Virus record (IMG/VR): IMGVR_UViG_3300031943_000020
Source: an uncultured virus (IMG/VR IMGVR_UViG_3300031943_000020)
Taxonomy: Duplodnaviria > Heunggongvirae > Uroviricota > Caudoviricetes
DNA length: 25,491 bases
Direction: 5' to 3' (one strand)
Under the pieces are notes generated by a model. It was not told the DNA's origin. It saw nothing but the letters and a program-made list of their open reading frames with translations, and searched no databases. Positions 1 to 25,491 of the stretch are shown here, piece after piece. The position numbers were made by a program, and so were the translations under genes. Every line of letters begins with the position of its first letter. Within the stretch, counting starts at the first letter, position 1.

Positions 1-240
1 GCTCGCAGAGTGGGCGTGAAGGCCCAAACGATGAATGCCATTGAGTTGGAGCGTCTTGATCCCAAGGCGTCGCTGGTGCGCGACATTGCGCGGGTCCTGC
101 GAGTGCGAGGGGAGTATTTGCTGTGTTTGACTGATGATAAGGACATCCCGGCGCGACGATGCCGGGGCGTGGTGCACCCAGGGATAGAAGATACGACCAC
201 GCCCGCGATAGCGCCTACGGTGCCGTACACGCCGGAGTGA
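1..240 (+). CDS. XRE/Cro-family helix-turn-helix regulator, 5' truncated by window edge
   Basis: Frame 1 is open from base 1: ARRVGVKAQTMNAIELERLDPKASLVRDIARVLRVRGEYLL is a typical XRE HTH. 21/46 identities, ungapped, to the HTH at 16810-17064. Confidence 0.8.
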   Translation, partial: ARRVGVKAQTMNAIELERLDPKASLVRDIARVLRVRGEYLLCLTDDKDIPARRCRGVVHPGIEDTTTPAIAPTVPYTPE

Positions 241-282
241 GTGTAGCAGATGAGGGCCGCTGTCTGGAAGAGGAGGACCCGC

Positions 283-552
283 ATGCCAGATACGACTAAG
301 CTGGCACAACAGTTGGCGGACCAGAAAGCCCGCCTGCAACAGCAAAAGGAGACGCTGGCCCGGCAGCAGCGCACCCTTGATAACCGCCTCGCTGCGCTGA
401 CACGCCAGCGGACGCAGGCCCGCCTCATGCGGGTGGGGAAGCTGGTGGAGGCCGCTGGTGTGCTGTGGGTGGAGGATGCTGTGTTAGAGAAGGCGTTGGC
501 GCACATGGCTGAGACGCTGACGGATGTATCTGTGACCAAGAGTATCTCGTAG
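283..552 (+). CDS. TraD/MobC-like relaxosome accessory protein (coiled coil)
   Basis: SD AGGAGG at 271-276, ATG at 283. Q/L heptad N-terminus, then RTQARLMRVGKLVEAAGV resembling the Ti-type TraC/TraD motif. Lies directly upstream of a MOBQ relaxase. Confidence 0.6.
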   Translation: MPDTTKLAQQLADQKARLQQQKETLARQQRTLDNRLAALTRQRTQARLMRVGKLVEAAGVLWVEDAVLEKALAHMAETLTDVSVTKSIS

Positions 553-592
553 AGATACCCTGAACCGTGTTTGAGTTCTCGTAAGGGGTGTC

Positions 593-1672
593 ATGGCCTT
601 AGCCCATTTTTGGATGCAAAGTATCAGTCGTGCGAAGGCGAGTTTACCGGCGTCGGTCGCGGTGCATTATCTCAAACGTGAAGCGGAGTTTGCCCCGGAA
701 GCCTACCTCTCACGCACAAGTGAAAGCACGAAGGATCGTCATGATTTAGTCGCATGGGATGTGCAGCATCTCCCAACCTGGGCCGAGGACAGTCCTGGGA
801 AGTTTTTTAGTGCCGCCGAACGCTATGAGGGGGTCAATCGGTACCACGCGATTATGCTACAATTCTCCCTGCCGAAAGAAATGACCCACGATCAGCATCT
901 TTCCCTGACCCAGGACTTTCTTGAGGCCACGATGCCAGACAAGAGTCTGCTCTGGGTCAAACATGAGCCGCTCGACAATTTCACGCATGAGCCCCAGCCG
1001 CATTGTCACATCTTACTTTCTGCACGCACGGTCGATGGGATTGCGCGTGATCCTGCGCAGACGTTTATGCGTTGGAATGCTGCCCATCCAGAGGAGGGGG
1101 GCTGTCAGAAAGATGCGTTTTGGAGTCAGCGGCAAGCCGTGGAACAACTCCGGCATGCGTTTACCGATCTCACGAACTTCCATGCTGAGAAGCTCGGGCT
1201 CGCTATGCGGATTGATAGTCGCAGCTTGCACCGTCGCGATATTGACCGGAAGCCGATGGTCAAAGAAGAGGACCGCCCAAGCCGTGAGGCATTGGCCGCC
1301 GAACAAGTCAAAGCTGCATACGCCTGGGAGCAGCGCAAAGTCTATAAGGGGCTCGGTGAGATCCAGGCGATCCCGCGTGAAGAGTTTGTCCTCCTTGTGC
1401 GGCAGTGGACGCGGGACTACGACCGGGGCCAGCAGCTCCCCCGCGTAAGTCTGACCGAGGTCCAGGCGTGGACGACGCAGGAGCAGGCACGGCTCGCGCA
1501 GCGCCAGCAGGGGGTAGACTACCAGCTCGCCCAGGTAGAGCGGGGGCTGGCGGGGGAGTTGCGAGCGCATGAACTGCTCGCTCTGACGCAGCGCCCGAGG
1601 CAGGAGCAGCCCGTGACGCCAGGGTTACGCGCACGGATCTTTGAGGATGACCACCCAGGGTATCGGTACTAG
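593..1672 (+). CDS. mobA: MobA/MobL family (MOBQ) relaxase
   Basis: N-terminal MALAHF..SISR..HYLKRE (catalytic Tyr motif), HLPTWAEDSPGKFFSAAERYE, FSLPKEM, 3H motif KHEP..QPHCHILLSAR, and RIDSRSLHRRDIDRKP. Confidence 0.92.
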   Translation: MALAHFWMQSISRAKASLPASVAVHYLKREAEFAPEAYLSRTSESTKDRHDLVAWDVQHLPTWAEDSPGKFFSAAERYEGVNRYHAIMLQFSLPKEMTHDQHLSLTQDFLEATMPDKSLLWVKHEPLDNFTHEPQPHCHILLSARTVDGIARDPAQTFMRWNAAHPEEGGCQKDAFWSQRQAVEQLRHAFTDLTNFHAEKLGLAMRIDSRSLHRRDIDRKPMVKEEDRPSREALAAEQVKAAYAWEQRKVYKGLGEIQAIPREEFVLLVRQWTRDYDRGQQLPRVSLTEVQAWTTQEQARLAQRQQGVDYQLAQVERGLAGELRAHELLALTQRPRQEQPVTPGLRARIFEDDHPGYRY

Positions 1673-3289
1673 ATGATTGCCAAGATGCTCCTCGCCCTGC
1701 TGGCCCTGACGGTAGGACTCACGACCGCCGCGCAAACGTTTGCCTATCTTATGCAGTTGGACCCTGCGCTTGGGTTACCGCTGTGGCGGCAGAGCGGATT
1801 GGCGATCTATGCCCCCTGGCGCGTCGTCGTTTGGGCCTGGCGGTGGGGACAGCTTGCCCCGACCGCGTTCGTGCTCCCGGCGTTTCTCGGGGGGCTCAGT
1901 GCGGGATGGACGGTCTGTCAGTGTCTGCCCACGCGTCCCAAGCCGGGGCAGGCCCACTGGGCCACGGAGCGGGAACTGCGGCAGGCTCAGTGCCGAGGCA
2001 CGAGCGGGATTGTGCTGGGGTGGACCGGCGCGCGGTGGCGGCGGCGGCTCGTGTGTTATGACGGCCCGCTGCACTGCTTCTTTGTAGGCAGGACCGGGGG
2101 AGGTAAGACGAATACCCTGACGAGTACGCTGCTCACCTATCGGCATAGTGTATTGCTGAACGATCCCAAGGGCGAACTGTGGACACGCACCGCAGGCTTT
2201 CGGGCGACGCTGGGCACAGTCTATCGGCTGGCCCCCACCGAGACCGCGAGTGCCGGCTACAACTTTTGGGGCGCCATCGACCCCACCAGTCCAGCGGCGT
2301 TCCGCGAGGTCGAGTTGCTGAGTCATTACCTGCTAGAGAAAGAGGGACCGGGCCATGAGAGTTCCGCCGGCGCCTTCTTCAGTGGGCTCGCCATGCAGTT
2401 CTTGAATGGCCTGAGTCTCTACGGGCTGCGTACCGGGCTGGCGACGTGTGGGGAGGACTTTAATGACCTCCTGGCCATGTCAGACTGGGCAGAGTTGTGC
2501 CAGCGTATGCAGGAGCATGATCTGCCGGTGGTCCAGCAGGCAGGTCGGCTTGGCGCCACAGGGAAGGGCGAGGTCAACGATAGCTTGCGCCTGACGCTCC
2601 TCCGCGCCTTGAGCGTGTTCAGTGATCCCCAGGTGGCCGCCATGACGCGCACGACCACGTTTCCCCTGACGGCGCTCCGGGAGCAGGACCAGCCCTGTAC
2701 GGTGTACTGGCATGTGCCCTTTCGCGACCAGGCCAGGCTGAAACGGCTCACGCGACTGTTCTTCCATCAGGTGCTCGATTACTGCACGCAGGGGCGATTC
2801 CTGCTCGACCAGCCGGGCCGTCTTGCTGTCGGTCATTCCCTCCTGTGGGTGGCCGAAGAACTCCCCAGTCTGGGGTATTTCCCGATGGCGACGGGGGGGC
2901 TGAATTACTTGCGTGGCTACGGCATTCAGATGCTTCTCCTGACGCCGAGTATGCAGGAGGTGATGAAGGAATACGGGACGCATCAGAACTTTCTGGAAGG
3001 CAGCTATGTCAAAGTGATTTTTGGCTTGAGTGATCCCCGAACGGCCCGCGAGTTTGCGGACAGTGTCGGGACCCACGAGGTGACCCGTACTCGTATCACG
3101 CGCCAGCGCGGAAGGAGGAGTACCAGTATCGACACGCACGATAAGGCGCTGCTGGACGCCACGGGCATTACGAAGTTGCCCCCAGGGCATGTCCTCATCC
3201 TGGCCGGGATGCACGCCCTGGTGGCTCGGCAGGCACCGTTTTATGGGTACCGGGTCTGGCGCGAGGCAAGCACCAGACCGGTCCCGTAG
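1673..3289 (+). CDS. traG: Type IV coupling protein, VirD4/TraG family
   Basis: N-terminal TM region with PALGLPLW..IYAPW, AHWAT motif, Walker A GRTGGGKT, LNDPKGELW..TAGFR. The Walker B position reads WVAEELPSLG. Confidence 0.92.
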   Translation: MIAKMLLALLALTVGLTTAAQTFAYLMQLDPALGLPLWRQSGLAIYAPWRVVVWAWRWGQLAPTAFVLPAFLGGLSAGWTVCQCLPTRPKPGQAHWATERELRQAQCRGTSGIVLGWTGARWRRRLVCYDGPLHCFFVGRTGGGKTNTLTSTLLTYRHSVLLNDPKGELWTRTAGFRATLGTVYRLAPTETASAGYNFWGAIDPTSPAAFREVELLSHYLLEKEGPGHESSAGAFFSGLAMQFLNGLSLYGLRTGLATCGEDFNDLLAMSDWAELCQRMQEHDLPVVQQAGRLGATGKGEVNDSLRLTLLRALSVFSDPQVAAMTRTTTFPLTALREQDQPCTVYWHVPFRDQARLKRLTRLFFHQVLDYCTQGRFLLDQPGRLAVGHSLLWVAEELPSLGYFPMATGGLNYLRGYGIQMLLLTPSMQEVMKEYGTHQNFLEGSYVKVIFGLSDPRTAREFADSVGTHEVTRTRITRQRGRRSTSIDTHDKALLDATGITKLPPGHVLILAGMHALVARQAPFYGYRVWREASTRPVP

Positions 3290-3298: not shown

Positions 3299-3676
3299 AT
3301 GTTGGTTCCTCTCGCAGAAGGGTCGACACTCGGGTGGGTCGCGCCTATCACCGCCGTGGCGACGGAAGTCCGGGGGATTGGGGTTATCGTGGCGGTGCTG
3401 GCGATTACCTTATTGGGTATGCGGGTCTTTATGCGCCGCCATCTGGAAGACCTGGGCGAATCGCTGACGGCCTATGCCGTGGGAGGCGCGCTGATCGGCA
3501 CGGCAGCCGCGGCAGCCCCCGCCATTCTCGGGTTTACCGGCGCGGCGACCATGAGCGGCTTGATGGTCGAGCCAGACGTCCTGGAAAGTCTGGGGACGAT
3601 CGCCAGCCTGTATGTGACGCAAGCGCCGATCATCCTTGGCGGCATGTGGGTCTGGCTGAGGCTCCGTCATGGCTGA
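3299..3676 (+). CDS. trbC: TrbC/VirB2-like pilin
   Basis: W..P followed by two hydrophobic helices as in TrbC; position before trbD; SD overlaps the upstream stop (TAGGAG). Has an extra C-terminal hydrophobic segment. Confidence 0.65.
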   Translation: MLVPLAEGSTLGWVAPITAVATEVRGIGVIVAVLAITLLGMRVFMRRHLEDLGESLTAYAVGGALIGTAAAAAPAILGFTGAATMSGLMVEPDVLESLGTIASLYVTQAPIILGGMWVWLRLRHG

Positions 3677-3947
3677 CGCGCTGCCTGGCTGGCATGCCCC
3701 GGTCTATAGCGGTATGGCCGCGCCGCCGAGTTTTCACGGCGTGCCGCAGATGTTCTTTGTCTTCGACCTGCTGGGGACGTTGTTCGTGGCGTTCATCTTT
3801 CTCTTGATTCAGCCGGTCTATAGCGTGTTGGTGGTGCTGGTGGGGGCGAGTTGCTACGGCGTGGTCTATGCCTGTGTGCAGGTAGAGCCACGGCTGGGTC
3901 GCATCCTGAAAGAGTACCGCAGCTACAAGCGGGTGTATGAGGGGTAA
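3669..3947 (+). CDS. trbD: TrbD/VirB3 inner-membrane protein
   Basis: GWHAPVYSGMAAPPSFHGVP matches the TrbD pattern (P-V-x-x-x-L-x-x-P-x-x-x-x-G-x-P); two TM helices; 92 aa; synteny. Confidence 0.8.
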   Translation: MADALPGWHAPVYSGMAAPPSFHGVPQMFFVFDLLGTLFVAFIFLLIQPVYSVLVVLVGASCYGVVYACVQVEPRLGRILKEYRSYKRVYEG

Positions 3948-3950: not shown

Positions 3951-4280
3951 ATGATACGTGAGTGGGGTATACACGTCGTATTCGGGTTGCTCATGGCGGG
4001 ACTCTTTCTGGCAGGTTTCGTCACACGTCCGTTCCTTACTGCCCCCCGCGAGGACTGCTTTGCGGCACGGGAGGCGACGGCGATGGTCGTCCAGCGGGGG
4101 ACGTGGAATGATGACAAAGAGCGCTGGTGGGTGACCGTGGCCTTTGCGCCTGCCAACTGGCACCGCACCTATGCCTCACCGCAGGAGGCCCCACGCACGC
4201 GTCATATGGGCTTCTGGAGTGCAGAAGGCACCCTGGGAACGATGACGCCCATTATTGCCTATACCACGAATCCGGAGTAG
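3951..4280 (+). CDS. Hypothetical membrane-anchored protein between trbD and trbE
   Basis: Fills the gap exactly; single N-terminal hydrophobic helix; no recognised family. Confidence 0.6.
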   Translation: MIREWGIHVVFGLLMAGLFLAGFVTRPFLTAPREDCFAAREATAMVVQRGTWNDDKERWWVTVAFAPANWHRTYASPQEAPRTRHMGFWSAEGTLGTMTPIIAYTTNPE

Positions 4281-4299
4281 GCCGCATGCGGGGGACTCC

Positions 4300-6501
4300 A
4301 TGAGTACACCAGTCGCTAAGCTCGTACTCTGGGACGCGATGGCCAATGCGCATACGCTGGTCAATAGGGATGGTGCGCTTATGAGCTGTATCCGCTTTCG
4401 TGGTCCAGATCTGCACAGTGCCATGGCCAGTGCCCTGCTCGTCCAGGCCGAGCAACTCAACAATTGTTTCAAGCGTCTGAGCGGAGGCTGGGGGGTCCTG
4501 AGTGAAGCCCGGCGCCGTGAGGTGCGGACCTATCCTGCGAGTACGTGGACGCATCCGGCGGCCCGCCTCGTGGACGAGGAACGGTGTGCGCGGTTCTTGA
4601 CACCCGGCCTGCATTATCAGACGGACTGCACGCTCACGCTGACGCAACGGCAGGCCCCTAAGCTGGCCGGTGCCTGGAAGCATCTCCTGTATGAGGGGCT
4701 CCCGAAGGCCGTACCGCTGCCGGGGCTCACCGCCTTTGAAGAACAGGTCCGCCGCACGGTCGCCCTCCTTGGGGAAGCCTGCGAGGAGGTGATCCTCTTG
4801 GAAGACAATGCTCTGCTCACGTATCTCCACAGTACCGTCAGTTGGAAAGACTACGCCGTGGCGGTGCCCGATCCTCCCGCCTACCTCGACACGTACCTCA
4901 GCCGGGATGCGACCATCGCGTATGTCTGGGCACTTCCGTCGCTCATTCAGTACCCGACGCTGAACGGGCAGCACGTGCGCTGTGTCAGTGCCCTGGCGTA
5001 TCCCAAGCAGACGGAGCCAGGCCTGCTCGATGTGCTCGATACCTTGCCGCTCGAATATCGCGCGACGGTGCGGTATCTGCCCCTGTCCAGGCAGGCCGCC
5101 ATCCGGGCTGCACAGGCGGCCGGCGATTCGTACTGGGGGCAGCGCCACCGGGGAACCAATACGCGCACGGAAAAGGCGTCGATGACGCGCGCCGAGGATG
5201 CGAGCACGTTTCAAGAGGGTATCGAGCTGGACGCGTGGATGGCCGGGTACGTCACGCAGACCATTGTGGTGTGGGATGCCACTCCCGAGGGCGCCATTGC
5301 CAAGGCGGAAACCATCGAAGCCACGCTGAACACCGCTGGTTTTACGGCGAAGGTGGAAGGGACCAATACGCTGCCGGCCTGGGACGGCAGCCTGCCGGGC
5401 AATCGCACGCGCAACCTCTCGACGACAATGCTGACGACCAGGAACCTGAGCCATCTGGTGCCGGCCACGAGTCATGTGCGGGGGCCAGCCTGGAATAAAC
5501 ACCTGGACGGGCCGCCGCTCCTCATGGTGACGGGACGGGGTCAGACGCCAGTGGCGCTCGATCTGCACGACGATGACGTGGCGCACACGTTTATTGTGGG
5601 GCCGCCGGGGACGGGCAAGAGCACGCTCGTGGCCAACCTGGCTCTGGCCTGGCTGAAATACCGGGGCGCGCAGGTCTACGCGATTGACAAAGACCAGTCG
5701 CTGCGTTGTGCGACCTATGCGGTCGGTGGCGATTGGTACGACATTGGCGCCGAGCTCACGGCCCAGACGCAGGGGAGTGCCGCGAGCATGGACGATCCCG
5801 GCTTTCAGGCGTGGGGGGCGCTCTGGACGCCACCGCCCGGCTGGTGGCAATGCTACGAGATGGCCAGTCTGCTTACGACCCCGACGATTATTCCGCAGGT
5901 GATGGGGCCGCTGCTGCGGCAGATGGAAGAGCGCTTGACGGGGGTGCCGACCCTGATTGTGCTGGACGAGGCCTGGGTGTACCTGCGCAACGAGTTCCTG
6001 CGGGGCAAGATCCAAGATTATCTCCTGACGCTACGCAAGAAAAACGGGGTGGTGATTTTCAGCACGCAAAACCTGGAACACCTGATTGGCAGCGAGATTG
6101 GGAGCGACGTGTATCAATCCTGCGTCACGAAGATTTTCCTGGCGAATGCCCAGGCCCTGACGCCCCATGTGGGAAAGCTGTACCGGGACCTGGGGCTCAC
6201 CGAGCGCGAGTGTTACCTGATCGCCACACTGGCCAGCAAGCGGCAGTACCTGGTTATGGGGCCGCATGGGCGGTATGTGATGGACCTCGGGATGGGCAAG
6301 GTGGGCCTGGCGTATACGGGCGTCGGGCGGAAGGAAGACCTAGCGGCTATTGCCGAGGTCTACGGACGATCACGGGCAGACTTTGCCCACAACTGGCTGG
6401 TGTACAAGGGGCTGCATGACGCGGCAGCGCGCTTGCACGAAGGAGACAACGATGAAGAAAATGCTGACCTGTGGCCTGCTGCTGCTCACGCTTTGGCCTA
6501 A
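4300..6501 (+). CDS. trbE: TrbE/VirB4 ATPase
   Basis: LVNRDGALMSCIRFRGPDLHSA N-terminus, Walker A GPPGTGKS, Walker B LIVLDEAW, LRKKNGVVIFSTQ. Start placed at ATG 4300. Confidence 0.95.
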   Translation: MSTPVAKLVLWDAMANAHTLVNRDGALMSCIRFRGPDLHSAMASALLVQAEQLNNCFKRLSGGWGVLSEARRREVRTYPASTWTHPAARLVDEERCARFLTPGLHYQTDCTLTLTQRQAPKLAGAWKHLLYEGLPKAVPLPGLTAFEEQVRRTVALLGEACEEVILLEDNALLTYLHSTVSWKDYAVAVPDPPAYLDTYLSRDATIAYVWALPSLIQYPTLNGQHVRCVSALAYPKQTEPGLLDVLDTLPLEYRATVRYLPLSRQAAIRAAQAAGDSYWGQRHRGTNTRTEKASMTRAEDASTFQEGIELDAWMAGYVTQTIVVWDATPEGAIAKAETIEATLNTAGFTAKVEGTNTLPAWDGSLPGNRTRNLSTTMLTTRNLSHLVPATSHVRGPAWNKHLDGPPLLMVTGRGQTPVALDLHDDDVAHTFIVGPPGTGKSTLVANLALAWLKYRGAQVYAIDKDQSLRCATYAVGGDWYDIGAELTAQTQGSAASMDDPGFQAWGALWTPPPGWWQCYEMASLLTTPTIIPQVMGPLLRQMEERLTGVPTLIVLDEAWVYLRNEFLRGKIQDYLLTLRKKNGVVIFSTQNLEHLIGSEIGSDVYQSCVTKIFLANAQALTPHVGKLYRDLGLTERECYLIATLASKRQYLVMGPHGRYVMDLGMGKVGLAYTGVGRKEDLAAIAEVYGRSRADFAHNWLVYKGLHDAAARLHEGDNDEENADLWPAAAHALA

Positions 6502-7168
6502 CGTGAGTTGGGGAGTATTCGGGGTTGGAGATATCGTGGTTGATCTCATTACCGAGGCACAGACGTCGCTGACGGCGCTGCGTACCCTCGCCTCGAACCT
6601 CAACGAGGTGAAGATCTTGAATAATCAGGTGACCCAGCTTGGGAACGACGCCGCCAATTTGGCCAAGCTGCCCCTGTCCCTCGTGGGCGAGGTGCAACAG
6701 ACGATGACCACGGCGACGAACTTGTTCAATCAGGGGCGGGCGATTGCCTACCAGGCGAAGGCCTCTCTGGATGCCTTCGATACGCTGTTTACCAATGGCC
6801 AGATACCTTTTAGTCAGCGTGCGCAAGCCATCTTCAACGAAATTCGCCAGACCAGTCGCCTCGCCACCCAGGTCCAGTCTATTTATGACGAGTTGTGTGC
6901 CAATACGGCTCGTGTCGAGCAACTCACGAATGCCAGTCAGGCGGCCGTGGGCGTGCTCCAAGCCGAGCAGGCCGGCAATCAACTCCTGGGCGTGCTCGCC
7001 AGCCAGCAAAACGGCATGTACCAGTTGCAGGCGAACACGGCGCGGCTTCAGACGCTGGTCTATATGCAAGGCGTGGTCGAAGACGAAGCGGCGAAGCAGC
7101 ATGCGGAGAATATGCTCAAGGACTGGCCCACCACATTGGGGGGCGTCACGGGGTTTAAGCTGCCCTAG
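6452..7168 (+). CDS. trbJ: TrbJ/VirB5-like protein
   Basis: SD AGGAG at 6441, signal peptide MKKMLTCGLLLL, Q/N-rich helical body, ASQAAVGVLQAEQAGNQLLG typical of TrbJ. Confidence 0.88.
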   Translation: MKKMLTCGLLLLTLWPNVSWGVFGVGDIVVDLITEAQTSLTALRTLASNLNEVKILNNQVTQLGNDAANLAKLPLSLVGEVQQTMTTATNLFNQGRAIAYQAKASLDAFDTLFTNGQIPFSQRAQAIFNEIRQTSRLATQVQSIYDELCANTARVEQLTNASQAAVGVLQAEQAGNQLLGVLASQQNGMYQLQANTARLQTLVYMQGVVEDEAAKQHAENMLKDWPTTLGGVTGFKLP

Positions 7169-7180: not shown

Positions 7181-7387
7181 ATGCGTGACGGGATACGATG
7201 GGGCATTGATGTTCAAGCGGCCACACTGCTCTGGAGGCTCACCAGCTTCCTGTGTGGGCTGCTGCTTCTGCCCGTGCTCGGGCTCGCTCTTGCCGGGCAG
7301 TATGTGCTGGCGAGTGTCTGGTTGTGCGTCGTTCTGGCGGTCCAGCGGGGCGTGTGGCGATTCCTGCTGCGGCGCATGATGCCATGA
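7181..7387 (+). CDS. Small two-TM membrane protein in the trbK (entry exclusion) position
   Basis: SD GAGGAG, ATGA overlap with trbL, two hydrophobic helices; function inferred only from position. Confidence 0.6.
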   Translation: MRDGIRWGIDVQAATLLWRLTSFLCGLLLLPVLGLALAGQYVLASVWLCVVLAVQRGVWRFLLRRMMP

Positions 7388-8334
7388 ATCCCCTCCCCGA
7401 AGGTGGCCTGCTCACCAAGCTCCTGCAAATCTTCGTCTTTAACTTTGCGGGGGGCGTGGACCGGCTGACGCCCGATGCGCAGTGGCTGCTCGTGCTGTTC
7501 TACGGCATCGACCTGGTGAGCACGGGAATCTGGTTTGTCATGCGGCGCGAACTCGACATGTGGTCGCTGCTGACCCGTGCCTTGACGGCGGTCATCTTTG
7601 GCTGGCTCATTACCAACTGGGTGGTCGTGACCAAGGCGCTGATGCAAGGCTTTCTCGGGGCTGGGATCAAGGCCGGGGGGGATAGCCTGACGGAGTTGGA
7701 CTTCACCAACCCGGATCGCATCCTCATGCATGGCTTTGGCGTGACGGCCGTGATCTTTCGGATGATCGCCGACACCAGTCTCTGGTCACTCAAAACGCAG
7801 GTACTCAACCTCCTGGCGGGACTCGTGACCCTGGCCACGATGAGCATTTATATTGTGCTCGCCGGCTTCGCCTTTCTGGCCCTGGTGGAGTTTTACTGGA
7901 GCTTGCCCGTGACGCTCATCATGTTGCCGTTTAGCATGCTCCCACGGGCGCATTGGCTGGCCGAGCGCGGTATTGCCCATACCTTTGCCGGGGCCATTCG
8001 CATTGGCGGGATTGCCCTCGTGCTGTCCGCCTCGCTCCCCCTCATGGTGACGGCGAGTTGGGGGAGCGTGGACAGCCTGACCGCCGCCTTTTATACCCTG
8101 ATTATCGCCTTTGCCCTGGCGGGCATGGCCTGGAAAGTGAATAGCTGGGCACGGGCCGTCCTGAACGGCAGTCTGGCCTTTGGGCCGCAGGATGTGACGA
8201 ATCAGATCCGCAGTATGACGACGCAGATTACGCATCTCGGTATCGTGATGCAGGCGTTGATGGACACGCTAGCCCACACGGACCCGGGCCATGCGTCGAG
8301 GCAACCACCACCGACAGCGAGGAATCGCCCATGA
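7384..8334 (+). CDS. trbL: TrbL/VirB6 polytopic membrane protein
   Basis: Multiple TM helices; GIKAGG..FTNPDRI and LVEFY..LIMLPF..WLAERGI match TrbL. Start at ATG 7384 overlaps the previous stop. Confidence 0.9.
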   Translation: MNPLPEGGLLTKLLQIFVFNFAGGVDRLTPDAQWLLVLFYGIDLVSTGIWFVMRRELDMWSLLTRALTAVIFGWLITNWVVVTKALMQGFLGAGIKAGGDSLTELDFTNPDRILMHGFGVTAVIFRMIADTSLWSLKTQVLNLLAGLVTLATMSIYIVLAGFAFLALVEFYWSLPVTLIMLPFSMLPRAHWLAERGIAHTFAGAIRIGGIALVLSASLPLMVTASWGSVDSLTAAFYTLIIAFALAGMAWKVNSWARAVLNGSLAFGPQDVTNQIRSMTTQITHLGIVMQALMDTLAHTDPGHASRQPPPTARNRP

Positions 8335-8741
8335 ACCACTCACGCCTCCCGACCGTCGCGCTCTTTACTCTGCTGGCCTTGCTGATCCTCTGCTCGCTGC
8401 TCACCCTCCTCCTGAGTAGCTGTGCGGGCTCCTTTGCGGGGCGGGCGCCTGAAACGCGCACCCTCACTGTGCCCTATAGCCAGGCGCAGGCCTATACCAG
8501 GTCGTCGCAGGTGCTCAGACAGATGGGGGCTGAGATGACCGCGATGGATGGTCGCCAAGCGCTCCAGGGCCTCGTGCATGGCGCGGTTCTCCTCAGTGTA
8601 CAGCTTCAGGAGCAGGGCATGAGTACCCTGGTGACCGTCACGGCCAGCATTCCCCCTGGCAAGCTCATACTGGGGACGGTCGATGAACTTGACCAGTTCT
8701 GTACCCGACTCCAAGCGGTGGAGACGGTCTATGCTCACTAG
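8331..8741 (+). CDS. Putative lipoprotein in the virB7 position
   Basis: Hydrophobic signal ending in LLLSSC (lipobox-like); ATGA-coupled to trbL and overlaps the trbF start. Confidence 0.65.
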   Translation: MNHSRLPTVALFTLLALLILCSLLTLLLSSCAGSFAGRAPETRTLTVPYSQAQAYTRSSQVLRQMGAEMTAMDGRQALQGLVHGAVLLSVQLQEQGMSTLVTVTASIPPGKLILGTVDELDQFCTRLQAVETVYAH

Positions 8742-15607: not shown

Positions 15608-15648
15608 GGTCGTACTCCTCTGGGGGCCTCCCGGCCCCCGATGTGGCG

Positions 15649-16809: not shown

Positions 16810-17064
16810 ATGGCAGAAACACTAGGAGATCGGATACGAGTTGCACGGGCACGACTTCGTCTCAGCCAGGCAGCCCTCGCCAGGCGCATCGGTATTAGCT
16901 CGACGGCGATGAATGCTATCGAGTCAGGAGGGGCTGATCCACGGGCGTCACGGATTACGGCCCTGGCAAAAGCCTTGCAGGTCCGTCCTGACTATCTGCT
17001 AGGGTATACAGAGGAAGGACACGATGATGCCCCGCTTACCCTGGGTCTACTACCTCAGCCTTGA
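16810..17064 (+). CDS. XRE/Cro-family HTH regulator
   Basis: LGDRIRVARARLRLSQAALARRIGISSTAMNAIESGGADP..LAKALQVRPDYLLG; no peptidase domain. Confidence 0.92.
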   Translation: MAETLGDRIRVARARLRLSQAALARRIGISSTAMNAIESGGADPRASRITALAKALQVRPDYLLGYTEEGHDDAPLTLGLLPQP

Positions 17065-18059: not shown

Positions 18060-20660
18060 ATGCCACGCGCGCCACGTCCTAGTGTGCCCCAGGATGATCT
18101 GACGACGACGCTGGAACTGTTGCCCCTGGCTGACTTACGCCCCCATCCTCGCAATGATGGGTCGCATCCTCCTGAGGAACTCGCCCATCTCAAGCAAAGC
18201 CTGACTGAGCATGGCGTCTATCGCAATGTGGTGGTGGCTAAGGATGGCACGATTCTCGCTGGGCATGGGGTGGTCCAGGCAGCACGGGAACTTGGCCAGA
18301 CCCACATTGCGGGCAAGCGCCTACCCTATGGCCCCGACGATCCGCAGGCCCTCAAGGTGCTCGTGGGGGATAACCATATTGCGCGGCTGCGGCTTCAGGA
18401 TGATGCGCTGCTCGCGATGCTCCTTGAGGAGGTAAGCCACGATGATCCGCTGGCGTTGCTCGGGACAGGCTTCGATGCGGAGACGCTGGCGGCGCTGGGG
18501 GAGAGGCAGGGCGTATGGCCTGCAACGGGGGATGGGGAGGGCCGTGATGCTTTAGGCGCCGCTGGGGGCTCCCTGTCCACGGTGTCGCTGGCCGAGCGGT
18601 TCCTGGTGCCCCCGTTTAGCGTGTTGGATGCGCGCCAGGGCTACTGGCAGGCACGGAAACGGGCCTGGATTGCGCTGGGGATACAGAGTGAGTTGGGGCG
18701 GGGTGACAATATTGGAGCCATTCCAGCCAATGAAGCGGCGCTCCCTGAGCGCCGCTTCAGCACCGAGAACGGCCTGCTGGGAGAATCCCAGCAGGCCCGC
18801 AGTCACTACCGCGCCAGTCCTGGAGGGACGTTGCGTCCCGCAACGTCCCTCGGCAAAGACGGCAAGACACAGCGCGGCGACGGGGCTGGCAAGCCCCTGG
18901 CCCGAACCGAAGGTTCGGGCAGTCCAGGGGAGTTAGCGGCAGCCTACAAGGCGCAGGGCCGTCTCACGGCCCTGCAAAAGACGGGGGATAGCCGGCAAAC
19001 GGCCAGCTTGCGTGGGGGCTTGCTGTTTGGTACGACGCTCCATCCGTATGATGGAGCGTCGCCAAGCGGTGATCGTATGGGGAACCCAAGGGTGAACAGC
19101 GTCTTCGGGCCGCCCGAAGACGCTGGGACGGCTGCGTCACAATCGGGTACCTCCATCTTTGACCCCGTCCTCTGCGAATTGGCCTATCGGTGGTTCTGCC
19201 CGCCTGGCGGCACCATCCTCGATCCCTTTGCCGGGGGCAGTGTGCGCGGCATTGTCGCCGCCCGGCTGGGGCGTGCCTATACCGGCATTGATCTGCGCCC
19301 GGAACAACTCGCTGCGAATGACGCCCAATGGACCCAGATTGGTGGGGGTCCTGCCGGCGCCCCTGCGCTCCTCGCCCCTCCGCGTGTCGAATCCTGTGGC
19401 GACCTGCGCATCGTCCGCGATGACGAGGTGCCCGGCGGCTCCAAAGTCCGGGCGCTTCTCCGTGTACTACCGACGTTTCCGGCTGAGGAGCTGGTCTATG
19501 CGAGCCCTGCCGCTGGCTTTGCGCAGATTGCGCTGGCCCTGGCGGCCCAGATGACCGGAAAGCGCGCCACCATCTTTGTGGCGCACCGCAAGACGTTGCA
19601 TCCGTGTACGGCTGCTGCCCGCCAAGCCGGCGCTCGCATTGAAGAAGTCCCTGCCGGGTACCTCTCCAATGTCCAGGCGAAAGCCCGGGCCTATTGCGCG
19701 ACAACGGGTGCTGAGTTGGTGCCGTTTGGTCTGGACGCCCCGCCCTACCTGGAGGCTCTGGCCCAGATGGCGCGGGAGACCGGTGAGCACCCCAACGAAG
19801 TCTGGTGTGTGGCGGGGAGTGGCGTGCTGGCCCGCGCCTTGCGGCAGGCCTGGCCGACGGCCCACCTCTGCGTCGTGGTGATTGGCAAGGCGCCCACGCT
19901 TCCCGAGGACAATATCCACGTCTACCAGGCTCCCGAAGCCTTTGAGCAGGACGCACGCCAGCCGCCGCCTTTTGCGTCGTGTGGGCATTATGATGCCAAG
20001 GCGTGGCAGTTTGTGACGCAGCATGCGACGCCTGGCGCCTTGTTCTGGAATGTGGCGGGGGAGGCTCCCCTGGATGCCGCGCCTTCTAGGGTCTGTGCGC
20101 CGCGCTGGCTGGTGGGGGATAGCCAGGCGCTGGACACGTTACCGCTCGACCCGGCCTACGACTTTGTGTTTACCTGTCCCCCGTATGCCGATCTCGAACA
20201 GTACAGTGATGATCCCCGGGACCTTAGCGTCATGGACTTTCCGGCCTTCCTGGGCGCCTATCGTACTATTCTGGCCCAGGCGCTCGCCCGGCTGAAGGCG
20301 GACCGCTTTGCCTGTGTGGTCGTTGGGGATGTCCGTGCGCCTGATGGCTCCTACCGCAATCTGGTGAGTGAAACCATTGCGGCCGGCCAGGCGGCGGGGG
20401 CGACGCTCTACAATGAGGCGATCCTGGTGACTGCGGTGGGGAGCCTGCCCTTGCGCGCGGGGATCCCCTTTGTGGCCACGCGTAAGCTCGGCAAAACGCA
20501 TCAGAATGTACTGGTCTTTGTGAAGGGTGATGCGCGCCGGGCCACGGAGGCGTGTGGCCCGGTTGAGGTCACGCAGGCGTTAGAAGCGGTTATGCCGATA
20601 GGGGAGTCGAGCGGAGCGCTCGATACTGCATATAATACCCCTGCGGGCGCTCTGGAGTAA
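18060..20660 (+). CDS. ParB-like domain + amino (N6A/N4C-type) DNA methyltransferase interrupted by a PLP-dependent fold-type-II domain
   Basis: ParB: LRPHPRN..LKQSLTEHG..ILAGHG..DNHIA. MTase: TSIFDPVLCE..ILDPFAGGS..GIDLRPEQ (SAM-binding) and GDS..DFVFTCPPY (catalytic). Insert: VRDD..GGSKVR..VYASP..GFAQIALA..VWCVAGSGVL..YDAKAW..LFWNV. Confidence 0.85.
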   Translation: MPRAPRPSVPQDDLTTTLELLPLADLRPHPRNDGSHPPEELAHLKQSLTEHGVYRNVVVAKDGTILAGHGVVQAARELGQTHIAGKRLPYGPDDPQALKVLVGDNHIARLRLQDDALLAMLLEEVSHDDPLALLGTGFDAETLAALGERQGVWPATGDGEGRDALGAAGGSLSTVSLAERFLVPPFSVLDARQGYWQARKRAWIALGIQSELGRGDNIGAIPANEAALPERRFSTENGLLGESQQARSHYRASPGGTLRPATSLGKDGKTQRGDGAGKPLARTEGSGSPGELAAAYKAQGRLTALQKTGDSRQTASLRGGLLFGTTLHPYDGASPSGDRMGNPRVNSVFGPPEDAGTAASQSGTSIFDPVLCELAYRWFCPPGGTILDPFAGGSVRGIVAARLGRAYTGIDLRPEQLAANDAQWTQIGGGPAGAPALLAPPRVESCGDLRIVRDDEVPGGSKVRALLRVLPTFPAEELVYASPAAGFAQIALALAAQMTGKRATIFVAHRKTLHPCTAAARQAGARIEEVPAGYLSNVQAKARAYCATTGAELVPFGLDAPPYLEALAQMARETGEHPNEVWCVAGSGVLARALRQAWPTAHLCVVVIGKAPTLPEDNIHVYQAPEAFEQDARQPPPFASCGHYDAKAWQFVTQHATPGALFWNVAGEAPLDAAPSRVCAPRWLVGDSQALDTLPLDPAYDFVFTCPPYADLEQYSDDPRDLSVMDFPAFLGAYRTILAQALARLKADRFACVVVGDVRAPDGSYRNLVSETIAAGQAAGATLYNEAILVTAVGSLPLRAGIPFVATRKLGKTHQNVLVFVKGDARRATEACGPVEVTQALEAVMPIGESSGALDTAYNTPAGALE

Positions 20661-21007: not shown

Positions 21008-21472
21008 ATGGGACGTCCTTTTCCGGATATTACGCCATATATTGACAAGCTCGTGAATGCGATTCTCATTGGCGCGACGTATGAACTGGCGGCGCTCTAT
21101 GCCGGGATTAGTGTCGATACCTTCGGGCGGTGGCGCAAGAAGGCCGCGACGGCGCCCGCCGGGACCCCTTTGGCCCTGTTGCATGAACGGCTCCAGGAGG
21201 CGGAGGGCCGTGCGGCTATCGGGTGGCTGGCGAAAATTGAGAAGGTTGCGACGGAGGGTGATTGGAAAGCCGCGGCGTGGAAATTGGAGCGTCGCTATCC
21301 TGAGACCTATGGTCGTACGTTCCAGAAGGTGGCGCTTACCACGCCTGATGGTGAAGCTGCTGCGCAGCCCACGATTATTTTCCTCCCCGCCCAATCGCCC
21401 AGCGCCGAGGAATGGGCGCAATCGGTGCAACATCTCTTGCCCACCAACGGGCACAAGCCTGATGAGGCATAG
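21008..21472 (+). CDS. terS: Putative terminase small subunit (HTH)
   Basis: HTH GATYELAALYAGISVDTFGRW and DWKAAAWKLERRYPETYG; sits immediately before terL. Confidence 0.72.
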   Translation: MGRPFPDITPYIDKLVNAILIGATYELAALYAGISVDTFGRWRKKAATAPAGTPLALLHERLQEAEGRAAIGWLAKIEKVATEGDWKAAAWKLERRYPETYGRTFQKVALTTPDGEAAAQPTIIFLPAQSPSAEEWAQSVQHLLPTNGHKPDEA

Positions 21473-21475: not shown

Positions 21476-22903
21476 GTGGCAACGACCGCCCCGCCTGCGT
21501 CCGTTGCGGGTCGCGTCCTGTGGTATCCCCAGCCCAAGCAACACGCCCTCATGAGCTGTCCTGTCGAGGATATTCTCTTTGGTGGAGCGCGCGGCGGTGG
21601 GAAGACCGATGGCCTGGGCGGTGACTGGTTGCGGCATGCGCAGCACTATGGCCCTGCGGCACGTGGCTTCTTCTTTCGTATGACGTATCCAGAGTTAGAG
21701 GAAGTCGAGCAACGGTTTCAGGACTTCTTCCCCGCGATGGGCGGCACCTGGCAGGCGGCCAAGCGGACCTGGACCTTTGCTAATGGCGCACGGCTGCGCA
21801 TGCGGTATCTCGCCAGCATCAAAGATGCGACACAGTATCAAGGGTTTAGTAATACCTGGGTCGGGGGCGATGAGCTGGGCAATTATCCTGACAGCAAGGC
21901 CGTCGATCTCCTACGCGCAACCTTGCGCTCAGCAGCGGGCGTGCCGTGCGTGTTTCGGGGGTCCGCCAATCCTGGCGGCGTCGGCCATAACTGGCTGCGT
22001 GCCCGCTACGTTGATCCTGCCCCACCGCTGACGCCGTTTGATGCGGTCGAGACGGTGGCGGGCGAGACGATCACCGTCAAGCGCTGCTACATCCCCTCAA
22101 CGCTGGAAGACAATGCCCTGCTCATGCGCAACGACCCCACGTACTGGCAGCGGGTTATGGCGGCAGCCGGGGGCAATGAGGCACTCCTTAAAGCCTGGCG
22201 GTATGGGGATTGGGATGTCATTGCCGGCGGGCTGCTCGATGACGTGTGGGACGCGCGGGTGCATGTGCTAGAGCCGTTCGACATTCCTACGGCATGGACG
22301 ATTCGGCGGGCGTTTGACTGGGGTAGCTCGAAGCCGTTTAGCGTGGGGTGGTGGGCGCATGCCGACGGGGCATGCCCGGCTGGACCGCAGCAGGTTGTCT
22401 ATCGCAAGGGCACGCGCTTTCGCCTTATGGAACTGTATGGGTGGAATGGCAAGCCCAATGAAGGCTTGCGGCTTACTAATACCGACATTGCGCGGCGCAT
22501 TAGGGAGGTCGAGGCTAGCTCGCCCTATGCGGGCCGTATTCAGGCTGGCCCTGCGGATAGCCAGATTTATGATGTCGTCAACGGCCGCTCGATTGCGCAG
22601 GAGATGGCGACCCAGGGCGTAAGCTTTATTGCGGCCCAGAAAGGGCCAGGCTCGCGGCGTCAGGGCTGGTCGATGTTGCGACAGTTGCTCAATGCGAGTC
22701 GTCACTGGCCGATGGAGGAGCCGGGGCTGTTTGTCTTTAACACGTGTCGCCAATTTATCCGTACCGTGCCCATCTTGCCGCGCGATCCGCGTGATGCAGA
22801 TGATGCTGATACGGACGCGGAAGACCATGTGGGGGATGAGTGCCGATATGAATGTACCATGCCCTTGCCCACGAAGGCCGAGATGCGCGGCTTGAGGTTC
22901 TAG
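21476..22903 (+). CDS. terL: Terminase large subunit (Terminase_6-like)
   Basis: PQPKQ, Walker A GGARGGGKT, Walker B VGGDELG, GSANPGG, nuclease RAFDWG..ADS..EDHVGDECRY. Confidence 0.96.
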   Translation: MATTAPPASVAGRVLWYPQPKQHALMSCPVEDILFGGARGGGKTDGLGGDWLRHAQHYGPAARGFFFRMTYPELEEVEQRFQDFFPAMGGTWQAAKRTWTFANGARLRMRYLASIKDATQYQGFSNTWVGGDELGNYPDSKAVDLLRATLRSAAGVPCVFRGSANPGGVGHNWLRARYVDPAPPLTPFDAVETVAGETITVKRCYIPSTLEDNALLMRNDPTYWQRVMAAAGGNEALLKAWRYGDWDVIAGGLLDDVWDARVHVLEPFDIPTAWTIRRAFDWGSSKPFSVGWWAHADGACPAGPQQVVYRKGTRFRLMELYGWNGKPNEGLRLTNTDIARRIREVEASSPYAGRIQAGPADSQIYDVVNGRSIAQEMATQGVSFIAAQKGPGSRRQGWSMLRQLLNASRHWPMEEPGLFVFNTCRQFIRTVPILPRDPRDADDADTDAEDHVGDECRYECTMPLPTKAEMRGLRF

Positions 22904-22906: not shown

Positions 22907-24475
22907 ATGTCCGTTGCGCTGAACCATCCTCAATACGATGAGTATGTGTATACTTGGCAGACCCTGCGTGATGCCTATGCCGGATCGGGAAACATCAAAC
23001 CCGCGGTAGTGTCCTCCAATAGTGCTCGCTCAAGTACCGGTATCAAGCAGGCCGGCACGCGCTACCTGCCCAGACCTGAAGGCATGCGCCTCGATTCCCA
23101 ATACGCGGCGTACCGCGACCGCGCCACGTGCAGCGGCGCACCCCAATGGGTCGCGCTCGGCCTGACGGGGGCGATCTTTCGCCGTGAACCGCAACTGGAG
23201 GTGCCCTCTCAACTCGATCCTCAGATGCGCAATGTGACCCGCACTGGCCTCCCGCTGCGCACCTTTGCGGAAGAAGTGGTACGCGATACGTTGCGCATGG
23301 GGAGGTACGGCGTCCTGCTCGATTTCCCCGCGCCGACCGTGCTGCCGAATGGCCGGGTCATTCCTCCCCCGCCTGGTTCTCGCCCGTACTGGATACCCTA
23401 CGCGACCGAGGAGATCGTCAACTGGCATGTAGTAGAGCGCGAAGGGGCGGAGCATATCGACATGATCGTCCTTGAGGAGAGTGTGCCCATGCGCCAGGGA
23501 GCATGGGGCACGGATGACTACTTCGTGATCAAGAATCAGCTCCAGCGCCGGGTGCTCCGGCTCAATGAGGAGGGCGTCTATGAGGTGAGCGTGTGGGTGA
23601 AAGTGCCGGCTACTCTGGGGGGCCAGCCCGCTACGTTCATGCCCACGCAGACGTGGATCCCTGATCGCATGGGGGAGCCGCTGAAGTTCCTCCCGTTCGT
23701 CTCAATGACGCCGCTGTCCCTCAAGCTCGATATTGTGCAATCGCTCCTGGAATCGCTTGTGGAGATTAGTTATAGGTATTATAGGCATAGCGCAGATTAT
23801 GAGCATGCCTTGCACCTGACCTCGCTCCCGACGCCCTGGGTGAGCGGCAATCTCGATCCCGCCACCGAACTCCTCATCGGCTCCCTCGTCGCCTGGGTCT
23901 TGCCCGATGGGGCGCAGGCGGGTATGCTGGAATACAAGGGCCAGGGCCTTCAGCCGCATGAGCACGCGATGCAGCAGGACCTCCATGACATGGCCGCCCG
24001 TGGCGCGAGTCTGCTGGAGGTGGCACCCCTGGTTCCCGAAACAATGACGGCCATGCTTACGCGCACGCAGGGGAGTGAGAGTCCCGTACAGACGTTGATT
24101 CGCAACGTAAGTGAGGGATTGACCACCTTGTTACGGTGGCACGCCTGGTGGAATGGCCAAAGTGAACGGCTCGATGATCCTGCGATTAGTTACAACCTGA
24201 ACAACAAGATCGCGGCCACAACGTTAGCGCCCCAACAGCTTCAGGCTCTCATGCAGACGTTCCTCAATGGGGCGATGTCATACGAAACGTTTTATTATAA
24301 TTTACAACAGGGCGAAGTAGCCCGTCCAGGTGTTGAGGTGGAGGAAGAGCAGGCCTTGCTCGAGGCGCGGGAAGCGGAACGGCTGGTGACGATGGCACAG
24401 GAGCAACGCATCGCAGGACGCAATGGCCAGCCGCGGCAGAACGGGCAGGCCGTGGGTCAAGGTGCTCGGGGGTAG
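22907..24475 (+). CDS. Portal protein (DUF4055-type)
   Basis: HPQY..YLPRP..YAAYRDRA, HSADYEHALHLTSLPTPWVSG, IGS..AGMLEY; follows terL. Confidence 0.88.
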   Translation: MSVALNHPQYDEYVYTWQTLRDAYAGSGNIKPAVVSSNSARSSTGIKQAGTRYLPRPEGMRLDSQYAAYRDRATCSGAPQWVALGLTGAIFRREPQLEVPSQLDPQMRNVTRTGLPLRTFAEEVVRDTLRMGRYGVLLDFPAPTVLPNGRVIPPPPGSRPYWIPYATEEIVNWHVVEREGAEHIDMIVLEESVPMRQGAWGTDDYFVIKNQLQRRVLRLNEEGVYEVSVWVKVPATLGGQPATFMPTQTWIPDRMGEPLKFLPFVSMTPLSLKLDIVQSLLESLVEISYRYYRHSADYEHALHLTSLPTPWVSGNLDPATELLIGSLVAWVLPDGAQAGMLEYKGQGLQPHEHAMQQDLHDMAARGASLLEVAPLVPETMTAMLTRTQGSESPVQTLIRNVSEGLTTLLRWHAWWNGQSERLDDPAISYNLNNKIAATTLAPQQLQALMQTFLNGAMSYETFYYNLQQGEVARPGVEVEEEQALLEAREAERLVTMAQEQRIAGRNGQPRQNGQAVGQGARG

Positions 24476-24811: not shown

Positions 24812-24830
24812 TCTGTCGAGGAGATACCCC

Positions 24831-25229
24831 ATGCCTGACTATGATCCGACCATGGAAGCGCTTATCGCCTCCATCCGTGAGGCGCTTGCTCCGCCGGATG
24901 CCGATGCACCGCGCGGCTATATCGAGGATCTTCGTGCCGTCCAGGGTGCACTCGTCAAACAGTTGGCGGAGGAAAGTCCCGAGTCTCCCTCGCCTGAAGT
25001 CGAGCAGATGATGCGCCAAGCGCTCGGGGTATTGGACCCGAAGAGTGAAGACCAGTATCTTGGCTACGGGGAGGTGCTGCGGCGGCTGCTCAGTGCCGTG
25101 GATCGCCAGCTCTTTATCTGGTCCAGTGGCATGGTCCAGCCCGTCGGCCCCAGCGGGGATTACCAGGTGCATGAGTATGAGGAGCCTGTGGCTGCTGAGG
25201 AACCGCGTGCGCATCGGGCGCCGCATTAA
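24831..25229 (+). CDS. Hypothetical acidic protein
   Basis: SD GAGGAG before ATG 24831 (MPDYDPT...). Confidence 0.65.
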   Translation: MPDYDPTMEALIASIREALAPPDADAPRGYIEDLRAVQGALVKQLAEESPESPSPEVEQMMRQALGVLDPKSEDQYLGYGEVLRRLLSAVDRQLFIWSSGMVQPVGPSGDYQVHEYEEPVAAEEPRAHRAPH

Positions 25230-25242
25230 CGGGAGCACCACT

Positions 25243-25455
25243 ATGCCCGATCCTACGAACCTGGAACAGATCCAGGAACAGAAAGCTCAGGAAAGCCACA
25301 GGGCCTTTAAGCGCGGGGCCGTCCGCAACGCCATCATCGCGCTAGACCTGGCCTATAACGGTATCGCCGAGGACTACCCAACGCTGGTAGTGCGGCTGCG
25401 CGACTTGCTCGAGAAGGAATTGGCCACCCTGACTGCGCCACCGAAGGGCAAGTAA
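25243..25455 (+). CDS. Hypothetical protein
   Basis: SD GGGAG before ATG 25243 (MPDPTNLE...). Confidence 0.6.
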   Translation: MPDPTNLEQIQEQKAQESHRAFKRGAVRNAIIALDLAYNGIAEDYPTLVVRLRDLLEKELATLTAPPKGK

Positions 25456-25491
25456 ATGGGGCTCCTCCTGCTCATCGTGTTGATCGTCCTG
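25456..25491 (+). CDS. Partial small membrane protein (runs off window)
   Basis: ATG abuts the previous TAA; MGLLLLIVLIVL. Confidence 0.45.
   Translation, partial: MGLLLLIVLIVL

Follow-up and report, generated by a model that had tools for sequence, protein, structure and literature searches.

The window analysed here is the whole stretch of 25,491 nt from the uncultured Caudoviricetes virus IMGVR_UViG_3300031943_000020 (IMG/VR). It carries an operon for conjugation and, further to the right, genes for the packaging of DNA into virions. The window covers about 29% of an element of ~87.5 kb that assembles as a circle and belongs to an uncultured bacterium, probably a diderm one. A diderm host cell is suggested because VirB9, VirB10 and a lipoprotein candidate are encoded. 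The element has a GC content of 62%. Together with the left flank (locus L038) and a rightward tiling by overlapping contigs to the window-equivalent position 65,440, 73.8 kb (84%) of the element were read, and negative results on the whole element hold for these 73.8 kb. Leftward from the start of L038, the viral collection yielded no overlapping contig. DNA nearly identical to the window was not present in the phage and plasmid collections searched.

The conjugation genes and the phage genes are physically linked on circularly permuted assemblies, their open reading frames (ORFs) and catalytic motifs are intact, and the pairing recurs in diverged relatives. The visible joins have neither an integrase nor an att repeat. 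With moderate confidence, the element is read as one hybrid replicon, in which a conjugation cassette is embedded in the genome of a temperate-looking siphovirus and both machines are apparently intact. The intact genes suggest transfer by both routes, in virions and by cell contact.

The conjugation cassette

The cassette of 12.7 kb encodes a P-type system (Trb/VirB, similar to mating-pair formation (MPF) type T). Its genes on the + strand from 250 to 12447 form an uninterrupted transfer operon headed by a helix-turn-helix (HTH) regulator. Pfam matches were judged against gathering scores, which are given in brackets after the bits. The NCBIfam names set the system as P-type: TrbE, IncP-type TraG, TrbJ, TrbL, TrbF, VirB10, TrbG and MobQ.

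The window starts within the gene of a Cro/CI-type HTH regulator, of which it has the 3' part (1..240, + strand; HTH_31). The whole gene lies at L038 8260-8568 and encodes ~102 aa from the aligned Met; the full ORF matches HTH_3/HTH_31. Between regulator and relaxase, an ORF of 100 aa (250..552, +) is without a family above threshold in Pfam, PHROGs and NCBIfam. Its position makes it possibly a relaxosome accessory protein. Directly upstream of the relaxase gene lies a 10-nt inverted repeat (539..561; L038 8867-8876 / 8880-8889, 90% complementary), a weak candidate for the origin of transfer (oriT). The nick motif YATCCTGY was not enriched, with 4 matches versus 3.5 expected, none of them near 539..561.

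The relaxase is of the MobA/MobL (MobQ) type with 359 aa (593..1672, +), supported by Pfam MobA_MobL with 64.9 bits (26.7) and NCBIfam MobQ (E 4e-13). It has a tyrosine at residue 26 and a histidine-rich stretch around residues 130-139. It is followed by a type IV coupling protein (TraG/VirD4-like, 538 aa; 1673..3289, +) with a Walker A motif at residue 139. The matches are to Pfam T4SS-DNA_transf with 127.2 bits (20.1), TraG-D_C and the IncP-type TraG (E 3e-52).

The genes for the channel begin with a candidate VirB2/TrbC-like pilin of 125 aa (3299..3676, +), which directly precedes VirB3 and has long hydrophobic helices. It is without an NCBIfam match; the structure model reached a predicted local distance difference test (pLDDT) score of 68, and a fold search gave no match at E <= 0.001. 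The VirB3/TrbD-like protein (3669..3947, +) has two hydrophobic segments and matches Pfam VirB3 (E 1.7e-4) with 22.3 bits (23.9), which is 1.6 bits under the gathering score. The VirB4/TrbE ATPase, 733 aa in source-called forms (4255..6501, +), matches Pfam CagE_TrbE with 35.2 bits (21) and NCBIfam TrbE with E 1e-165. Its Walker A and B residues are invariant across 21 clade members. A TrbJ/VirB5-like secreted protein of 238 aa (6452..7168, +) has a signal-peptide-like N-terminus and is matched by NCBIfam only (TrbJ, E 6e-28). TrbL/VirB6 (7252..8334, +) reaches 40.8 bits (25.9) in Pfam and E 1e-13 for TrbL. The next gene codes for a small protein with a hydrophobic N-terminus followed by a cysteine (8331..8741, +); it is a VirB7-like lipoprotein candidate by position, without Pfam or NCBIfam match.

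The remaining channel components are VirB8/TrbF (8683..9354, +; Pfam 62.7 bits (23.2)), VirB10/TrbI (9282..10547, +; 112.9 bits (35)) and VirB9/TrbG (CagX; 10563..11261, +; 37.7 bits (34.2)). Two ORFs of 186 and 170 aa, the second rich in proline and threonine, end the operon (11258..12447, +). Both have signal-peptide-like N-termini and are without matches in Pfam, PHROGs and NCBIfam. VirB11/TrbB (T2SSE) was without a match among the window and left-flank ORFs scanned.

The phage module

The small terminase subunit TerS (21008..21472, +; phrog_4102, E 2e-19) starts 8.5 kb past the join of the two modules. It is followed by the large terminase subunit TerL (21476..22903, +; phrog_979, E 2e-26), which has a Walker A motif at residue 37 and is without a Pfam match and without a sequence match in the PDB. 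The portal protein (22907..24475, +) matches phrog_145 (E 2e-96), Pfam DUF4055 and the PDB portal 8xb5 (E 7e-31). PHROGs confirmed the order terS-terL-portal at 21008-24475, which an earlier note on this DNA had placed about 8.5 kb beyond the junction.

Contigs of a viral collection match the window at 100% from 18909, 21107 and 23944. Overlapping contigs tile the element from window 18909 to window-equivalent 65,440 with 100% identity (99.99% in three overlaps), and these identical contigs supplied the capsid and tail genes. The tiled stretch encodes a MuF-like head morphogenesis protein, a scaffold protein, head-tail adaptors, a major tail protein and a tail assembly protein. The major capsid protein matches phrog_212 (E 3e-78) and Pfam GP7. 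The tape measure protein has 1084 aa, and a J-like tail fibre of 1749 aa matches phrog_31 (E 4e-93). By gene content, this is a complete siphovirus-type structural module.

Between the MuF and scaffold genes, L025 3867-5715 (window-equivalent ~27810-29658) codes for a DndB-like protein (Pfam E 1e-17) and a Dam methylase, which look like DNA-modification or anti-defence cargo. The tail genes are followed by a leftward block (L053 5110-11186, window-equivalent ~59364-65440) with the most deviant tetranucleotide usage of the element. An ORF of 1177 aa in this block had no informative match in the ESM Atlas or Pfam. Endolysin and holin families were not among the downstream ORFs scanned.

Upstream of terS, a protein of 866 aa (18060..20660, +; Pfam, PHROGs) combines a ParB-like nuclease domain with a DNA methyltransferase that has an insert similar to pyridoxal phosphate enzymes. 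The methyltransferase PHROG matched in two stretches; between them lie matches to PALP (Pfam E 1e-6) and to phrog_7093 'threonine dehydratase' (E 2e-35). Relatives were found at 22 loci in metagenome-assembled genomes of many phyla, with variable tblastn segment patterns. One of the 22 loci (L009) has another window gene, a TerL fragment with 58% identity. The ParB-methyltransferase is a promiscuous phage gene, because the loci come from many phyla and only one has another gene of the window. The 301 genomes of the phylum of L009 gave a single distant match to VirB4.

Physical linkage and circular permutation

A metagenome scan with the coupling protein yielded locus L038. Its contig of 87,528 bp matches window 1-7610 with 99.99% identity and stops at the latter position. 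In a protein look-up, 9/10 proteins were present in the collection; the AAA_25 helicase, with an approximate start, was without a match. Eight proteins had exact sequences on a contig of 87,528 bp: the coupling protein, VirB9, the 170-aa protein orf170, a SWIM protein, the 84-aa HTH regulator of the phage, TerS, the portal and the major capsid protein. For the tape measure protein, the exact match is on a contig of 87,505 bp, with a variant of at least 90% identity on one of 87,528 bp. The exact 170-aa protein was found on 20 contigs, the longest of which has 87,528 bp.

VirB9 (10563) and the phage genes lie past the end of the 87,528 bp contig in window coordinates, so the contig starts just after window 7610, and the assembly is circularly permuted. 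The permutation and the near-equal size of the second assembly are explained by a circle of ~87.5 kb or by terminally redundant phage DNA of this size.

The earlier note had proposed that conjugation and virion genes share one element. This gained support from independent assemblies, from the circularly permuted contig and from diverged relatives with both modules. An assembly chimera that joins an unrelated plasmid or integrative and conjugative element (ICE) to a phage at 12450-12520 is excluded. At least four assemblies must span the join: the window, the 87,528 and 87,505 bp contigs and a 39,488 bp variant with VirB4 and portal. The proteins flanking the join are on 20 and 21 contigs, respectively, and diverged relatives have both modules. 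In the viral collection, both the VirB4 protein and the junction sequence were without a match, and the phage part alone was found there.

The permuted ends also bear on a chromosomal phage-ICE tandem that arose by site-specific accretion and leaves the chromosome as one circle with both parts. A wide distribution is reported for such tandems, with 612 across seven phyla (PMC13651849), and a contig of 98,809 bp, longer than the circle, has both markers. The tandems are defined by two integrases and attL/attM/attR, yet none of these was found at either cassette end. The two assemblies are nearly equal, with 87,528 and 87,505 bp and permuted ends, and no host gene was seen in the 73.8 kb. We consider such a tandem very improbable.

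Relatives with both modules

VirB4 relatives formed 21 clusters at >=42% identity. Thirteen are on contigs <12 kb and are uninformative; eight are on contigs >=17 kb. The four closest of these eight match a portal relative in contig size in bp. The identities of VirB4 and portal are 99% and 96% on the 39,488 bp contig, 75% and 78% on the 39,575 bp contig, 69% and 53% on the 77,660 bp contig, and 68% and 52% on the 89,517 bp contig. Capsid relatives, 3161 in total, also match at 77,660 and 89,517 bp; for these two sizes, each of the three proteins was seen on exactly one contig. The 98,809 bp contig has a VirB4 fragment of a cluster with >=90% identity and a portal fragment with 78% identity; it exceeds the 87.5 kb circle.

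Both modules were read directly, within 21 kb, on L039, which the scan with the coupling protein also found and which comes from a frameshift-rich contig of 83,931 bp. It encodes the portal (~80% identical over most of its length), TerL, ParB, an HTH_3 regulator, the relaxase (40%) and the coupling protein (57%); its transfer genes also include VirB3, VirB4, a TrbJ-like protein and VirB6. TerL of L039 belongs to phrog_2, that of the window to phrog_979. The cassette is reversed in comparison to the window: it abuts the ParB/packaging genes and diverges from the packaging genes across ~2 kb. An integrase was not detected in 51 stop-to-stop frames across the ~2-kb gap and the extra DNA inside the transfer operon. 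In the transfer operon of L039, VirB4 and the TrbJ-like gene are separated by ORFs for an HNH endonuclease (phrog_3593, E 1e-16) and a weakly matching GIY-YIG-like endonuclease (14884-16653 of L039).

Some six lineages appear to keep both modules, on contigs of 78-99 kb; identity in them falls as low as 68% for VirB4 and 52% for the portal. Outside the clade, the nearest VirB4 is alphaproteobacterial TrbE with ~31-38% identity. A scan with the VirB4 clade alignment gave 80 loci, mostly alphaproteobacterial TrbE, all with <=41% identity save one 45-residue fragment at 49%.

Regulators and composition

The rightward operon of the phage starts with a Cro/CI-type HTH regulator of 84 aa (16810..17064, +), which matches HTH_3/HTH_31 and 21 PHROG regulator families. 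The HTH protein of the cassette shares 48% identical amino acids with it over 69 aa (E 3e-19). The cassette HTH gene has a sigma70-like promoter, a ribosome-binding site and an ATGGCA start upstream, a layout as at the phage HTH gene. A common operator motif of >=8 nt was not found upstream of the two genes. The cassette appears to be led by a paralogue of the phage's own HTH regulator.

The promoters themselves are near-perfect. The phage HTH gene is preceded by a sigma70-type consensus promoter with 12/12 positions (16761..16789, +). A second one has 11/12 positions (17987-18016), and a similar one lies before the transfer-operon regulator (L038 ~8205-8245). They lie in AT-rich islands and suggest a host with classical sigma70 promoters.

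In tetranucleotide usage, r is 0.68-0.79 between the cassette and each of three early/late segments of the phage and the left flank; those segments among themselves reach 0.55-0.72. The outlier is the post-tail segment, with r 0.50 to the cassette and 0.36-0.64 to the others. Five unrelated high-GC controls gave r 0.39-0.50 with the cassette. Regulator paralogy, composition and invariant VirB4 motifs favour a long co-residence and regulatory integration, and are not proof of a single replicon alone.

The join and the surroundings of the cassette

The transfer operon and a leftward block converge, with the last + gene ending at 12447 and the first - ORF at 12519. The 71 bp in between contain a GC-rich hairpin (12454..12491), a probable two-way terminator. 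An 86-nt stretch at the hairpin folds at -39.5 kcal/mol (z -3.9), and 0/200 shuffles were as good. These data bear out the description in the earlier note of an uninterrupted relaxase-coupling protein-trb operon (593-12447, +) that meets a leftward block (ORFs from 12519, -) across about 70 bp with one hairpin.

The leftward block (12519..16464, -) consists of ~10 small ORFs. They include two SWIM zinc-finger paralogues (14556-15317 and 15649-16176; SWIM E 1e-3), the only ORFs of the block with PHROG matches. The matches are weak (E 8e-6 and 6e-4; phrog_22961 and phrog_17897), and both proteins match phrog_17897. The block had been called a phage early operon; it is present as described, and its phage identity is based mainly on its position, beside the two SWIM matches. 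A 49-nt direct repeat with 82% identity occurs at 13625-13673, in an intergenic region, and at 14230-14278, inside a small ORF of the block. It contains a short GC stem and may be a repeated regulatory or terminator element.

On the other side, the left flank comprises 8.3 kb upstream of the window (L038), in which 21 ORFs were scanned with Pfam and PHROGs. Besides small ORFs, its - strand encodes two beta-helix proteins, a VRR-NUC nuclease (phrog_824, E 2e-34), an AAA_25 helicase and a T5orf172 protein. The two right-handed beta-helix proteins (329 and 343 aa, pectate-lyase / NosD-like; L038 6119-8156) are adjacent, directly upstream of the cassette and transcribed away from it. Both may resemble tailspikes or depolymerases, or act as surface enzymes. 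The cassette is flanked by leftward-read genes on both sides. Its proposed location in the slot of the lysogeny module gained no support: it lies between two leftward blocks, and in L039 it is reversed and abuts the ParB/packaging genes.

Families of integrases and transposases were not detected in 44 window ORFs, 21 left-flank ORFs and the downstream ORFs to window-equivalent 65,440. The window has no transfer RNA (tRNA), transfer-messenger RNA or Rfam family and no att-like repeats. The cassette ends are without a common 10-mer; common 9-mers arise by chance in 154/200 shuffles. The junction is free of integrase, transposase, tRNA and att-like repeats, in agreement with the earlier note. The ORFs at 3292-3807, 6744-7379, 12998-13522, 16424-16720 and 17390-17638 were rejected as wrong-frame artefacts of high-GC DNA; they are arginine-rich and without matches.

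These surroundings allow for a conjugative plasmid with a resident prophage, or an old plasmid-phage cointegrate, in which the type IV secretion system (T4SS) cassette and the helicase/VRR-NUC flank are the backbone. The AAA_25 helicase, VRR-NUC and T5orf172 genes could be of plasmid origin, yet genes of this flank match PHROGs, among them that of the VRR-NUC nuclease. An integrase and att sites could lie in the 13.7 kb outside the sequence read; none was found at the join at 12.5 kb or past the tail genes. The phage relatives without a size-matched VirB4 are 20-35 kb shorter, and the different orientation of the cassette in L039 would also suit a nested prophage. A precedent is the E. coli plasmid p1002-1, reported as a fusion of a conjugative plasmid with a phage-plasmid (bioRxiv 10.1101/2025.03.14.643293), and prophages on conjugative megaplasmids are reported as well. 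On the other side, the cassette regulator is paralogous to the phage regulator, and the pairing holds down to 68% VirB4 identity. We regard a nested prophage or cointegrate as unlikely and prefer the hybrid replicon.

Weighing the proposed hybrid replicon

Several observations weigh against a single replicon with two working routes of transfer. About 13.7 kb (window-equivalent 65,440 to ~79,200) are outside the sequence read, and lysis genes, a plasmid replicon or an integrase with att sites could be located there. A plasmid replication initiator (Rep) or ParA was not found in the 73.8 kb, nor was an integrase; the AAA_25 helicase and the ParB-methyltransferase were the only candidates, and the ParB domain is of the phage nuclease-methyltransferase kind. 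VirB11/TrbB, oriT and lysis genes were not found in the sequence scanned, and the pilin is a candidate only. Every NCBIfam match to transfer proteins scores below NCBI's curated cut-offs, so the transfer system appears to be divergent. Compositional likeness indicates a common host, not a common replicon.

The relatives add further reservations. VirB4 and portal are linked in them by equal contig size in bp rather than by direct reading of the contigs. No portal relative of equal contig size was found for the four VirB4 relatives at 43-51% identity (contigs of 17,380, 46,569, 55,602 and 62,219 bp), which are more distant. The opposite orientation of the cassette in the window and in L039 would also fit separate insertions. 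Orientation and mosaic identities, such as VirB4 >=90% with portal 78%, fit a cassette or a portal moving among related phages.

A further reservation is the size of the head. Phage relatives without a size-matched VirB4 are on contigs of ~47-66 kb, with clusters near 50-54 kb and 66 kb, versus 78-99 kb for those with both modules. An example is a 66,439 bp contig with a capsid 88% and a portal 81% identical. If the smaller relatives are complete genomes, the 87.5 kb genome may exceed the headful of the capsid. An element that does not fit into the same head could move by mating only, or may need a larger capsid.

The size gap (50-54 and 66 kb versus 78-99 kb) speaks for a hybrid replicon that moves by one route: a phage-derived conjugative plasmid too large to package or with merely transducing virions, or a phage with a T4SS that serves other ends. 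The missing oriT, VirB11 and lysis genes in the sequence scanned are also in line with one route. On the other hand, every structural and transfer ORF is intact, with the same sequence in many assemblies, the catalytic residues are retained, and the relaxase together with the coupling protein points to DNA transfer. A one-route hybrid is considered improbable, somewhat more so than the nested prophage, and the hybrid replicon with both machines apparently intact remains our preferred reading.

Comparison with known mobile elements

A 2025 review states that a phage and a full conjugation system in one element have not yet been found. Known phage-plasmids are described as having replication and partition genes and no conjugation system. 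The element resembles the phage-plasmids of the P1, N15 and SSU5 groups as a temperate tailed-phage genome that assembles as a circle, has additional plasmid-type functions and lacks an integrase in the 84% read. Unlike in phage-plasmids, the plasmid-type function is a full transfer system, and plasmid rep/par genes were not recognised in the sequence read.

Phage-ICE tandems of Streptococcus and other bacteria share the physical linkage of phage and conjugation modules and a possible joint transfer. They are described as products of site-specific accretion that have integrases and att sites, 'rather than a hybrid element' (Sci Adv 2026, PMC13651849). The tandems are two integrative elements in the chromosome, each with an integrase, whereas the present element assembles as a circle, has no integrase or att at the joins and has a paralogous regulator. 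The plasmid p1002-1, termed a 'conjugative phage-plasmid' (bioRxiv 10.1101/2025.03.14.643293), likewise has phage and conjugation genes in one replicon. Both of its parental plasmids are recognisable in related isolates; in contrast, the pairing described here recurs across lineages (68% VirB4, 52% portal), and no parents are known.

The transfer system shares the gene set and most of the gene order, TrbE to TrbI, with P-type (Trb, IncP/Ti) systems of MPF type T. It differs by the ~31-38% identity to named TrbE, the absence of a detected TrbB/VirB11, the MobQ-like relaxase and its location in a phage genome. The 'conjugative prophage' Phi1207.3 of Streptococcus pyogenes is described as 'capable of conjugal transfer' (PMC4260502). 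Unlike Phi1207.3, the present element encodes a relaxase, a coupling protein and a channel. Phi1207.3 is not known to encode a T4SS of its own.

Another preprint reports T4SS domains as only sporadic in putative phage-plasmids, and a single-cell preprint mentions conjugative phage-plasmids in a supplementary table. A literature search on conjugative phage, prophage, phage-plasmid and phage with T4SS did not turn up any report of a phage lineage that is conserved and has a complete conjugation system of its own. The element is best described as a variant of known hybrid elements; it is not proven to be a new class.

A model for the element and its meaning

In the quiescent state, the circle would be kept in the cell as a plasmid or by means encoded in the remaining 13.7 kb. 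Transcription of the transfer operon would start at a sigma70-type promoter of its own and be controlled by the HTH protein paralogous to the phage regulator. The relaxase would nick an oriT, and the coupling protein would feed the strand to the Trb-type channel; the whole circle could then enter a touching cell. On induction, terminase and virions would be made from the rightward operon, and the same DNA would be packaged. At 12454-12491, the hairpin may keep the convergent transcripts from invading each other.

A bolder view is tentative and rather doubtful. Uncultured diderm bacteria could be the hosts of a conserved family of temperate siphoviruses, each of them also a conjugative replicon able to transmit itself. 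Two exits from the cell would be open to the same circle of ~78-99 kb: inside capsids, or as a single strand via its own Trb-type channel. The transfer operon would be under a duplicate of the phage switch protein, and the element would opt for lysis, silence or mating.

Gene transfer is usually described as having two separate engines, phages and conjugative elements, which differ in cost, host range and size limits. Later reports concerned fusions or tandems of two still-separate elements. A lineage in which one replicon has retained both machines despite substantial divergence would offer a natural test case. It raises the questions why the combination is rare, how the limit of the capsid is reconciled with a cassette of 12.7 kb, and whether mating offers an escape from a receptor-limited host range. 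The finding also bears on metagenome classifiers that force a contig into either 'virus' or 'plasmid'.

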